Positions 52,701 to 55,700 of a DNA stretch of 64,000 nt are shown in pieces. Numbering within the stretch: the stretch's first letter is position 1; each line of letters starts with the position of its first letter. Position numbers: made by a program. This DNA is from Escherichia coli (GTDB lineage Bacteria > Pseudomonadota > Gammaproteobacteria > Enterobacterales > Enterobacteriaceae): NCBI RefSeq assembly GCF_030013595.1, contig NZ_CP122768.1; one strand, written 5' to 3'.

Positions 52701-55700
52701 CCTGCCCGGCCTTGATGCGCTGGCCGCCGCTTTCCATGTGTTTACCCACGGTCATTTCCCCGGTGGAAATAATCATGGTGCGCCATGTGTTGACCGGGCG
52801 GGCCATGCCGGACACCTTGCCACGCTGACGGCCTGTTCCGTTGCCAAGCTGATAAATCAGCCCGCCAATATCTCTGGCCGGGGCTTCGCCAATTTCATCC
52901 AGTATCAGCGCGGTATCGTTCCGCATGGTTGCCAGCCCTTCAAGCCCGGTGCTGGTGGCGTTCCAGTTGCGTTTAAAGTTGCGGGGTTCTCCCCATACGC
53001 TACAGGCCACCAGCGCCCCCACGCTTTTCCCGCTGGAACTGTCGCCCATGAAATGAAATCCGCCGCTGTCCACATCAAGCAACCACAGCAACGGCCCGGC
53101 GAGCGATGCACACACGGCCAGCATGGTTACCGGGTTTCCCCGGCATAATGCGGCCACGTTGTCGCGCCAGCCCTCCGGCGTTCCTGCGGTGGCGTACTCC
53201 TGTGAGCCTGCTTCTGTTGACTGAAACACCACATCACCATCACCGATAACCCCGCCCGGCATGACAAACAGGGCCGGGGAGTGCCACCCGGTGGCCGTGG
53301 CCGCGAGCGCCCGGCGTTTTGGTGCTGACTCCATGATGTATTCAGTCAGTGCCTGCCGTTGTTTGTAGGGAATGGTAACGCCCATGCGTAGCAGTTCCTG
53401 CCGGAGTTCTCCGCCGTCTCCGGCGAGCATTTCCATCGGTGCGGCCCATTCCCGCCACTGGCCTGACGGCGTGAGAAAACGGAGTAATCGCCCGTAGTTT
53501 TCGTCTTTGCTGTCGCTGGTCATGGCGATGACCTCCAGCGGGGAACATATAAACGTGTCTGTGTTGGTTGAGTCGCGCACGCCGTGCCAGTAAAGGCCGG
53601 GTTTCAGTATCTGGCCGCCGTCCACCTGTACATGCTGCGAATAAGTGGCGTAGCCCGGACGCGCCGGGCTGACTTTGGGGTGTTTCTTGCGTGGTGGTTT
53701 TCTCTTCCCGGATGTGACCGGGGTTTTAGTGGTTGTCCGGGTCATGCTCCATTTCCCATAGCATCAAATCGTTAAAGTCGGAAAGGTCTGGTGATGCACC
53801 GGGCGGCCATTCCGGGAATGTGACGTAACACCCGGCCAGCAATGCGGCTTCGTTGGCTGCTCTGGAACCGGGGTTATCTTTTGATGCCCGGTCATCATCC
53901 CCGGCGATAACGAGAGATATGCGCGAGCCGTATCGCTCACGCAGCGCCATAGCCACATGTTTAAGGTTTCCCGCATTCATGGCACACACCACGGCCATGA
54001 CGTTCCAGTACTGGAGAAGGGCGGCCCCGGTGGCCCACCCCTCACACACGTAAACGTCATGTTCCGGCGCTTCCGGGGCCATCAGGTCAAAGCTCCCCAT
54101 AACATGGAAAGCCCCCTGCACCTGACCATCACGGAGAAACATTTTTCGACCGTCCGGGCTGATAATCTGCACGTTCACCACTTCGCCGCATACGTTGTAC
54201 AGCGGGACAAGCAAATCATTACCTGACTGATACAGATTGCCGGGCTGTAGCCGTTTTTTCATGAGATAGGGATGAGAAGGGTTTGCCACCTCCGCCCGGC
54301 CAAGCAACTCAAAGGCCCGGCAGGCGGTCAGTTTCTGGCGCTGGTGGCGCTGTTGCTGTTCCCGCTGGCGGAGTCTGGCCGCCTCCTGTTCTGCGGCCTG
54401 TACCCGCACCCGTTGCGCCTCCCGTTGTTCGCGGGTCATTACATCAGGTTTGCCCAGCGCGGGCAGGCACAGCCCCAGCCTGTCCGCCACAATACGGGCG
54501 GCATCAGTCTGCCGCACATTCCATAAATAAGCCCCCAGCGCCACAAGGTCGCCGCCGCTGTCCCCGGTGGCGAAGTCGTGCCAGCATCCGTCCACCAGCG
54601 AGACGGAAAAACTGCCCGCGTGACGGTCTGCACGCGTGGGGTTACGACACACCCATTCAGTGGCCTGCCGTTTACCTTCGGGCAGCCATTCGGGAACAAG
54701 GATTTCTGCATGTTGTGCCGCCACTGCGGCAACGCTACGGATTGCGTTAATCGTGGCTATGTCACGCATGTTGCCCGTCCTCCCTGATTTCCCCGGTGCG
54801 GCAGCGCCAGTTATACGCCTCCACAACCTCACTGAATCCGGCCACAAGTTCAGCCGTAACAGCGATGGAATCGCCCAGGCTGCGTAGTTCATTTGGACCA
54901 AGAGCATTATTGTCGCCAATTACCGAAAGTAGCCGCCCTGTGCCAGCCAGCGCATCAAGCAGTTTGCGGGCGCAGTAATCCGCATCATCAAACATTGCGC
55001 GGGCTTCCTGTGCGTCTGCGTTTTTGATGGCCGCAACCAGTAGTTCAGGTATCCGGGTGTTATACATATCACGCATGGCTTACCTCCCCGGCCTGCTGGT
55101 CGTAACACTCCATCAGTTCGGCCATACAGCCAATGAGGGCAGGGGCTGTCTGTAGAAATCCGGCTAACTGGCAGATCTCGTCTCTGGAATAGGTGATGGG
55201 GTTTTCGCGTAACTGGCTTTCCTCCAGTGCCTTACCAACAAAGGCAATCCCCGCAAGTAAATTCACTCTGTGCCAGTCTGCATCAACGCGCAGACTCCAG
55301 CGGCTTTCTTCGTCCGGCATACTGCTCATGGCGGCTTTCATTGACTCACGCAGACAATCACGCATGACGCACCCCCTGAGCCGGAACGCGGCCAGCAAAC
55401 AGCAACACAAAATCACGCGCCAGCATACGGCGGGCGGTTGTTTCATCGGGTGCGTTGACGGATTCGCGGTGTGGGCGGTCGTTCAGGTCGGAACGGCGAA
55501 CAGCCAGAAAGTGAAAGGTAAATTCAGGGTGTAACGGGGTTGGGGTCGTAGCCATTCTGGCAGCCTCCTTTTGCAAATTTAAGGAGTCACCGCCTGAGTT
55601 CCTACACTCATAAGGGGCGGTGACGCTGGCAGGGGTAGGAATACCGGCGCAAAAGGAAACCGGCCAGCCTTTCGGCTGCCCCACCAGCGCCACCATAGAT

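Follow-up and report, generated by a model that had tools for sequence, protein, structure and literature searches.

The window analyzed here is a stretch of 64,000 nucleotides (nt) from the Escherichia coli chromosome (NCBI RefSeq assembly GCF_030013595.1, contig NZ_CP122768.1), and the region tested is 100% identical to that of E. coli strain ETEC4090. It carries a small island of ~8 kb (interval 50400–58715) that adjoins a tRNA-Ile gene (58716–58788) and lies beside mug, rpoD, and dnaG. The genes of the island are arranged on the minus strand in the order integrase (int), a hypothetical protein of 296 amino acids (aa), an AlpA-like regulator, a leader of 425 nt, three small open reading frames (ORF A, ORF B, and ORF C), a Toprim primase, and a DUF927 helicase. 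ORF A is nested in a longer frame (eta/kil), and a hypothetical protein of 96 aa completes the content of the island. This region is the front of an early ("left") operon of the type found in phage P4, and the architecture as a whole is already known from the P4 left operon and from the P1 immI operon.

Three Small ORFs Joined by a Standard Junction

ORF A (65 aa, 55555–55358), ORF B (98 aa, 55365–55069), and ORF C (104 aa, 55076–54762) lie in series on the minus strand, as do the other genes and the leader elements of the window described below. They are followed by the Toprim primase (347 aa, 54769–53726; phrog_2249, E = 2.6e-50), which starts with the ATG at 54769 (MRDIAT...), in agreement with RefSeq; a TTG at 54919 proposed by an ORF lister is not the real start. 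The junctions A/B (55358–55366), B/C (55069–55077), and C/primase (54762–54770) were all found to be 8-nt overlaps with the same 9-mer, CATGCGTGA, which in each case encodes ..H-A-stop of the upstream gene and M-R-D.. of the downstream gene. Four copies of this 9-mer are present in the window against ~1 expected, and three of the four fall within 794 bp, exactly on the stop/start junctions. A G-rich Shine-Dalgarno-like run (GGGGG or GGAGG) is located 6–10 nt before every ATG, within the last codons of the upstream gene.

The ETEC4090 locus, which is 100% identical, is annotated by RefSeq with the same B, C, and primase frames. The 8-nt junctions are preserved in every related locus, even where the cassettes themselves differ. 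Across the cassettes the junctions agree in having GGGGG or GGAGG placed 6–9 nt before ATGnnT(G/A)A, and as a consequence most cassette C-termini end alike, in ..G-x-x-H-[A/D/E/V]-stop. In P4, kil, epsilon, and orf151 are also chained by 8-nt overlaps (kil/epsilon, GTGCGTAA; epsilon/orf151, ATGTTTGA), and this shared length argues that the region in the window is an early operon of the P4 type.

A preliminary description of this DNA had noted three small ORFs with 8-nt overlaps upstream of the primase and had proposed that these overlaps imply translational coupling with the primase. Its coordinates and junctions agree with those determined here. The overlap, together with the Shine-Dalgarno-like run, is the geometry that translational coupling requires, and coupling has been demonstrated experimentally in the homologous pairs icd-ant of P1 (PMC8201110) and orf45-anrP of Gifsy-1 (PMC4825925), so the proposal would fit. 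The same description held that a lack of conservation of these frames in related islands would mark noncoding DNA; the frames were found to be kept in those islands.

The Leader RNA Cassette

The main regulatory feature of the region, which the preliminary description overlooked, is a cassette of RNA elements directly upstream of ORF A. A consensus scan identified a sigma-70-like promoter (TTGCCT-18 nt-TATATT, 55835–55864) with a predicted start at ~55828, and we infer that this is an immunity/early promoter like PLE of P4. The predicted start coincides with the first base of a match to the isrK model of Rfam (RF01394, 60.7 bits, gathering score 50), a leader element like P4 seqA that extends over 55749–55828, contains the upstream C4 target copies a1 and b1 (see below), and ends in an intrinsic terminator (55770–55754 plus a T-run). 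A C4-type antisense immunity RNA, the counterpart of P4 CI, is found at 55613–55700 (RF01695, 79.6 bits, gathering score 45); the match covers model positions 1–87 of 87, and the predicted folding energy is −48.6 kcal/mol. The isrK and C4 models also match the seqA/CI region of P4 itself, and the equivalence of isrK/C4 to P4 seqA/CI is stated outright in PMC4825925 and PMC10111431.

The apical loop of the C4 RNA, UCCUUUUGC, is the exact complement of two sites, b1 (GCAAAAGG, 55784–55777) and b2 (GCAAAAGGA, 55574–55566), and an unpaired C4 segment, UUCCUAC, is the complement of GUAGGAA at a1 (55803–55797) and a2 (55605–55599). Two target sets with exact complements of 7–9 nt, a1 b1 upstream and a2 b2 downstream, are therefore present on either side of the C4 RNA, as expected of a C4 system; the order matches a1 b1-c4-a2 b2 of P1/P7 and seqA-CI-seqC of P4. 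Site b2 overlaps the Shine-Dalgarno sequence of ORF A (AAGGAGG, 10 nt before the ATG). ORF A thus has the position of an Icd-like gene, directly downstream of the C4 RNA and with a target over its ribosome-binding site.

ORF A and the Long Frame Around It

ORF A was matched by the NCBIfam model for Icd-like proteins (NF033153) with 73.2 bits against a cutoff of 25, residues 12–58 aligning to profile positions 1–47 of 48, and by phrog_6928 and phrog_1743. It is 52% identical to P4 Kil over residues 1–65, its entire length; the matching part of P4 is the 65-residue C-terminal portion of the old "cI/ash" ORF, directly upstream of epsilon. Among phage records, ORF A matched P4 and icd of Yersinia phage PY54, and no P1 record was among the matches at E ≤ 1e-5. 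The ratio of nonsynonymous to synonymous substitution (dN/dS) is 0.05–0.46, and the protein is basic, with an isoelectric point (pI) of 11.1. ORF A is, on these alignments, a homologue of the P4 Kil/P1 Icd-like inhibitors of host cell division. We hold this identity and that of the RNA cassette, taken jointly, with high confidence. The preliminary description had stated that the three ORFs match nothing recognizable, which stands for B and C in the libraries searched; ORF A is the exception, and it alone of the three maps to a known P4 protein with a defined role.

Icd of P1 inhibits cell division or kills the host (PMC8201110), and the same is reported for P4 Kil (PMC10111431). In P4, Kil is a truncated form of Eta and acts in cell killing (PMC4825925, PMC10111431); the latter paper describes the long P4 ORF as eta, citing Forti et al. 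1999. The same nesting, also overlooked in the preliminary description, is present in the window. An eta-like ORF of 201 aa (55358–55963) runs through the C4 RNA gene and ends in frame with ORF A, and it is 52% identical to the P4 "cI/ash" ORF over 113 aa. The frame of ORF A, which is also that of alpA, stays open for 142 codons further upstream, from directly after the alpA stop. In 8 related loci the corresponding extension spans 115–143 open codons, and in P4 it spans 152; in a Mu-like prophage (L004), where the C4-icd pair stands alone, it is open for just 10 codons.

We had considered the 201-aa "Icd-like" ORF of RefSeq to be a simple over-extension. This view was revised, as the ORF corresponds to P4 eta and the frame is conserved as open. 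The annotations "Icd-like" (201 aa), "ash family protein", and Pfam Phage_ASH overlie the C4 RNA gene both in the window (55358–55963) and at the equivalent positions in L002, L004, L030, and L031.

Transposon screens for suppressors of the cell death that phages trigger gave hits in Icd-like genes of prophage loci that are P4-like or related (bioRxiv 10.1101/2023.04.06.535777). The loci concerned were a P4-like prophage of ECOR15 and a locus of ECOR61, and the ECOR61 phenotype needed all six linked genes, one of them a primase gene (10.1101/2023.04.06.535777). The gene order of the ECOR61 locus is unlike that of the island in the window. These hits indicate that Icd-like modules can have phenotypes resembling abortive infection.

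ORF B and ORF C as Members of One Small Family

Searches of B and C against Pfam, NCBIfam, PHROGs (to E = 10), and PADLOC gave nothing usable; their family profiles had no match among Protein Data Bank (PDB) sequences, and tblastn against 50,697 phage records found none. The absence of any family annotation, together with the rarity of B (~9 representative clusters), is what could be said for reading B and/or C as frames that are open by chance, in an untranslated, GC-rich stretch that separates kil from the primase. The homologues argue otherwise. ORF C has 54 of them, at 57–91% identity and with 26 invariant residues, in Escherichia, Salmonella, Klebsiella, Citrobacter, Lelliottia, and Plesiomonas. 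For ORF B, HMMER was run exhaustively against 1.8 billion representative proteins and returned 9 representatives, down to 30% identity; those at 30–48% identity retain the length, the motifs, and the genomic position. The dN/dS of ORF C is 0.2–0.5, AlphaFold2 (AF2) models of C and B have confident mean predicted local distance difference test (pLDDT) values of 87 and 90.8, and the start/stop geometry with its Shine-Dalgarno-like runs is kept at every junction. A noncoding origin has almost no chance of being correct, and conservation of the predicted frames excludes it.

Both models have one predicted topology of three helices, in which a long helical hairpin comes after a short first helix (residues 2–15, 19–51, and 61–97 in B). 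Both families are acidic (pI 4.6–5.0) and consist of proteins of 98–111 aa. No match was obtained in a direct BLASTP comparison of B with C; the relationship emerged through profiles and through a divergent member. The two family profiles align over 84 columns in hhalign (probability 91.9%, E = 7e-7), and the B-family protein of island L026 matches C in BLASTP with E = 6e-4. The B model superimposes on a 104-aa Klebsiella protein with a template-modeling score of 0.83 at 1.4 Å; the length of this protein suggests that it may belong to the C family. A search with the combined B/C profile added just more unannotated Enterobacterales proteins. From these profile alignments B and C are, by prediction, remote paralogues of one small uncharacterized family. 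Homology of B or C to P4 epsilon, orf151, or orf106 was also considered and was rejected with BLASTP and hhalign at the available sensitivity.

The evolution of ORF C differs from that of its neighbors. Between islands in which the synonymous divergence (dS) of primase and helicase is at most 0.08, the dS of ORF C is 0.15–0.56. Alleles of C differ by up to ~25% of their amino acids in islands where the primase N-terminus is 99–100% identical and ORF A is 96–98% identical. Together with the dN/dS of 0.2–0.5, these values indicate that ORF C is under purifying selection and that its alleles are much older than the flanks. The gene is a mosaic: residues 1–22 and ~41–62 (the end of helix 2 and the hairpin loop) switch between allelic types, and helix 3 (63–100) is as conserved as the primase. 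An earlier idea that the divergence ends exactly at the C junctions is ruled out by this internal mosaicism.

Cassette Layouts in Related Islands

Locus contexts were gathered by exact-protein look-ups, and a scan of species-representative genomes with the C profile gave 2 loci. The islands compared have ORF A and primase N-termini at the identities given above, with L026 and L029 being more distant. Of 5426 complete E. coli genomes, 38 carry C, 27 carry B, and 31 carry the window-type primase. Between icd and the replication genes, the window, L001 (ETEC4090), and L005 have B-C, whereas L002 and L007–L016 have C alone and no B. An additional ORF of 154 aa precedes C in L017–L023 and precedes B-C in L003. 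Of the more distant islands, L026 has a B-family gene alone, and L029 has the reversed order, C-family and then B-family. In L029 the entire chain of Bro-N, AntA, eta/kil, C, B, and primase is joined by 8-nt overlaps; genes for Bro-N and AntA occur in the overlap chains of relatives, and the island in the window has neither. The layouts overall are icd-C, icd-B-C, icd-C-B, icd-B, and icd-[C4+icd]n-(B)-C, with ORF B optional and ORF C near-universal in the island family.

The 154-aa ORF, annotated as "Icd-like", was found to consist of a further full-length C4 RNA (72–74 bits) and a short icd-like coding part. It is located at 4599–5063 in L003, 4544–5008 in L017, 4534–4998 in L030, and both 4077–4541 and 4534–4998 in L031. 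Related islands consequently carry two or three tandem C4-icd immunity units, with three in one island. Our earlier reading of this cassette as a homologue of P4 orf151 is ruled out by its composition. The database annotation can be corrected on this basis, since C4 RNA genes lie beneath the ORFs annotated as "Icd-like" (201 aa and 154 aa) and as "ash family".

Of the C-carrying genomes that lack the window-type primase, two were examined (L030 and L031, with islands at the same tRNA-Ile site). In both, C is joined to the C4-icd units by the usual overlap, and it is separated by a gap of 73 nt, with no overlap, from an unrelated module of DUF4222, a RepA-family helicase, and SSB. The presence of C beside an unrelated replicon argues that C belongs to the C4-icd early module and not to a particular replicase. 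B and C behave like cassettes that can replace one another at the position occupied by epsilon and orf151 in P4, and they are very probably real, paralogous, and coupled.

These layouts bear on two other functions that could be assigned to B and C. The P4 protein Cnr (orf106) is a protein of ~100 aa that is encoded directly upstream of alpha and modulates this initiator. In size (98–111 aa) and position B and C resemble orf106, and they could likewise be replication accessory proteins or copy-number regulators of the primase-helicase. A B/C-family gene stands directly before the Toprim primase, with the 8-nt overlap, in every Toprim/DUF927 island examined; all 31 primase-bearing E. coli genomes are among the 38 carriers of C; and the 3' third of C, which encodes helix 3, is conserved like the primase. 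However, C is also found before the unrelated replicon of L030 and L031, where the overlap is missing, and its alleles diverge where the primase is nearly invariant. There is no match of B or C to DUF5375 (Cnr) in the Pfam scan even at E ≤ 10, and the hhalign probability against P4 orf106, with a profile compared to a single sequence, is below 1%. We consider a Cnr-like role distinctly unlikely.

Alternatively, B and C could be antidotes or modulators of the toxic Kil/Icd-like protein, with coupled translation supplying the neutralizer in a fixed ratio. A B/C-family gene does follow the icd unit(s) in every island of the family, whatever the replicon type, the charges are complementary (pI 11.1 for ORF A and ~4.6 for B and C), and Icd-like genes are implicated as cell-death effectors (bioRxiv 10.1101/2023.04.06.535777). 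However, the conserved toxin has no conserved antidote beside it: what follows Icd/Kil elsewhere is the unrelated epsilon in P4, Ant in P1, and a 134-aa ORF in the Mu-like L004. B is dispensable, and C is hypervariable in the same islands where ORF A barely changes. This role is very unlikely, and less probable than the Cnr-like one.

Proposed Regulation and Function of the Operon

Several components are evident from the sequence itself: an RNA cassette with complementarity to the ribosome-binding site of ORF A, homology of ORF A to Kil/Icd and its nesting in an eta-like frame, and a conserved coupling geometry that extends to the primase. A mechanism can be proposed from them. The promoter-like site would transcribe a leader with the isrK/seqA-like element and the C4/CI-type antisense RNA. 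The C4 RNA would pair with its two target pairs, the downstream pair covering the ribosome-binding site of ORF A and holding ORF A untranslated. Through coupling and polarity, this block would silence B, C, the primase, and the helicase; the whole chain would be affected because the standard junction links each of B, C, and the primase to the gene before it. The chain would be switched on either by read-through translation from alpA via the eta-like frame or by a loss of C4 control. In P4, the CI RNA pairs with seqA and seqC, which leads to premature termination and keeps the replication genes off in the lysogen (PMC4825925). In Gifsy-1, the predicted anti-repressor AnrP is translated only with translation of the upstream orf45, from an isrK-controlled transcript (PMC4825925).

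For B and C we tentatively favor a role as protein-binding effectors that act against a helper phage or the host, for example as takeover factors of the anti-repressor kind; by analogy this is possible, although it falls short of being probable. The analogy is with P1 Ant, P4 epsilon (annotated as the helper derepression protein in NC_001609.1), and Gifsy-1 AnrP, in all of which the coupled downstream gene encodes a factor of the anti-repressor type. A variable external partner is favored by the acidity of B and C, the absence of a match to a DNA-binding domain, the mosaic, hypervariable surface, the shuffling of the cassettes, and the Bro-N and AntA genes in the chains of relatives. The variable N-terminal helix and the hairpin tip of C may set target specificity. 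The suggestion of repressors for such proteins, which was made in the preliminary description, fits poorly with acidic three-helix proteins that match no recognized DNA-binding domain. Helper-phage takeover factors, also named there, are by analogy still the leading candidate for B and C.

The explanation as a whole, namely, a P4-type operon under C4 control with a Kil homologue and paralogous B/C cassettes in an effector role, is considered to be moderately probable. A bolder form, which we regard as rather unlikely, is that B/C constitute a new family of helper or host takeover proteins that swap specificity, encoded in a plug-and-play array in which all cassettes end in one and the same built-in ribosome-binding site and ATGnnTGA, and in which the hypervariable N-terminal helix and hairpin tip of C would recognize the target and track diverse phage repressors. 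In such an array the cassettes, and even whole C4+icd units, could be inserted, deleted, duplicated, or reordered without breaking the RNA-controlled coupling to the replication genes.

Several observations weigh against the effector interpretation and the operon model that contains it. Neither experiment nor homology ties B or C to a function. Foldseek searches with the C model against PDB and with the B model against BFVD and AFDB50 returned just nonspecific helical hairpins or uncharacterized proteins. The acidic B and C contrast with the basic P4 epsilon (pI 9.3), and neither B nor C matched epsilon by BLASTP or PHROG; the hhalign probabilities were 0.1–0.3%, with the limited sensitivity of a profile compared to a single sequence. 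The failure to match orf106, given above, is of the same kind. On the regulatory side, the c4-a1b1 model of Rfam (RF03163) scored 38.6 bits, below its gathering score of 46.7, and with a separate Shine-Dalgarno-like run at every junction, ribosomes could initiate independently and the coupling could be partial. With respect to a helper, the island has no recognizable capsid-redirection, late, or packaging genes, and we know of no helper phage for it. A second tRNA-Ile 3' end that would mark the attachment site attR was not found at ≤3 mismatches (50343–50916 compared with 58713–58736), and the island may therefore be immobile or fixed, or the attachment core may be very short.

Comparison with Known Systems

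The closest counterpart is the P4 left operon, PLE-seqA-CI RNA-seqC-eta/kil-epsilon-orf151-cnr-alpha. Both have an AlpA/orf88 homologue upstream, the isrK/seqA- and C4/CI-like RNAs, and a Kil of 65 aa nested in a long eta-like frame. In both, the next two genes after kil are joined by 8-nt overlaps, with B, the first after kil, in the position of epsilon, and an alpha-related Toprim primase follows. The primase is 34% identical to the Toprim region of P4 alpha over 117 aa. The systems differ in that the two genes after kil in the window are not detectably related to epsilon, orf151, or cnr. The primase and helicase are separate genes, and the DUF927 helicase has no similarity to alpha at the BLAST level. 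P4-like satellites share a core set of int, alpA, epsilon, alpha, sid, delta, and psu. The island, at just ~8 kb, lacks sid, delta, and psu; its scanned proteins match none of these families, and the capsid-size and late-control functions of a P4-like satellite were accordingly not recognized.

The immI operon of P1/P7 (a1 b1-c4-a2 b2-icd-ant1/ant2) also has a C4 RNA between two target pairs, with the downstream b site over the ribosome-binding site of an Icd-like first gene; in P1, the gene after icd depends on the translation of icd (PMC8201110). The downstream genes in the window are B, C, and the replication module instead of the Ant anti-repressor, and the element is an integrated island and not a plasmid prophage. 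In Gifsy-1 (isrK-orf45-anrP), an isrK-type leader with a terminator and read-through precedes a small ORF that must be translated if the gene after it is to be translated (PMC4825925), and the isrK model matches the window as well. The Gifsy-1 junction is AUGA, a 4-nt overlap, and its follower is anti-repressor-like, in contrast to the 8-nt overlaps and the unrelated small helical followers here. Gram-negative satellites of the phage-inducible chromosomal island (PICI) type have the order int, alpA, variable early zone, and primase-helicase with adjacent iterons, as in the window, and C4 and isrK matches are reported in the Bro zones of several of them, both according to PMC10111431. The island differs from these satellites by the lack of Bro-N, AntA, and recognizable late, packaging, or capsid genes.

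We found no description of the B/C family in PMC10111431. As far as our searches extend, what is new is the family itself, its internal paralogy, its strict association with C4-icd, its mosaic evolution, and the shuffling of cassettes, including tandem C4-icd units, at a standard 8-nt junction. A block that had been called unassigned becomes a defined regulatory unit, in which the Kil-like toxin, the two small effectors, and the primase-helicase form a chain of coupled genes that is apparently gated by an antisense RNA of the P1 C4/P4 CI type. The uncharacterized B/C family is always found with the C4-icd module, and its members evolve as cassettes that are mosaic and become shuffled. If they are helper-specific anti-repressors or anti-host factors, this would explain how minimal islands sense or seize their helpers. 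The layout as a whole nonetheless follows the P4 early operon, which has been studied in depth, so that the findings represent a modest step in concept.

Other Features of the Island

The remaining genes on the minus strand are the integrase (58524–57250), the AlpA/P4 orf88-like helix-turn-helix regulator directly upstream of the eta-like ORF (56239–55982; phrog_66, 39% identity to P4 orf88, also annotated by RefSeq), and the DUF927 helicase (612 aa, 53745–51907), which overlaps the primase by 20 nt. The 296-aa ORF (56370–57260) lies between int and alpA and overlaps the int stop by 11 nt. It is kept in related islands at 269–319 aa; the copy in the window had no match in NCBIfam, PHROGs, or PADLOC, and its relatives had none in precomputed Pfam annotation. 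The 96-aa ORF (50917–51207) has a Cys-rich C-terminus (CPRC...HC), lies downstream of the putative origin, and is kept in all related islands; no family match was obtained for it. Genes for PerC, Mor, or Bro-N, which the island in the window does not have, come after it in some relatives. None of ORFs A, B, and C, the 154-aa ORF, and the two hypothetical proteins (296 and 96 aa) matched a PADLOC model at E ≤ 1.

Just 3' of the helicase (51640–51890), iterons GGGAAC(N)GGTGGGAAC occur in both orientations and flank an AT-rich stretch; this region is probably the replication origin of the island. A motif near CGCAGCCCGCGCC is present in six copies across the island, at 50740, 51478, 51558, and 56107 on the plus strand and at 51308 and 58660 as the reverse complement. 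One copy lies between tRNA-Ile and int and another inside alpA, and the motif might be a binding site for a regulator or a recombinase. At the other end of the island, a degenerate CAGCAGGGCCA was noted near 50397–50410, adjoining nfeF.

The int-alpA RNA of Rfam (RF02996, 63–64 bits) is found between int and the next gene in L003 (2561–2626; an island of the yicC/rph site) and in the Tenebrionibacter island L006 (2791–2856); it was not reported for the island in the window by the Rfam scan. In the window, just the 96-aa ORF and spacer lie between the helicase and nfeF. The ETEC4090 locus (L001 13966–17554), which is otherwise identical, carries IS26/IS6 remnants with aac(3)-IVa and aph(3')-Ia in this interval.

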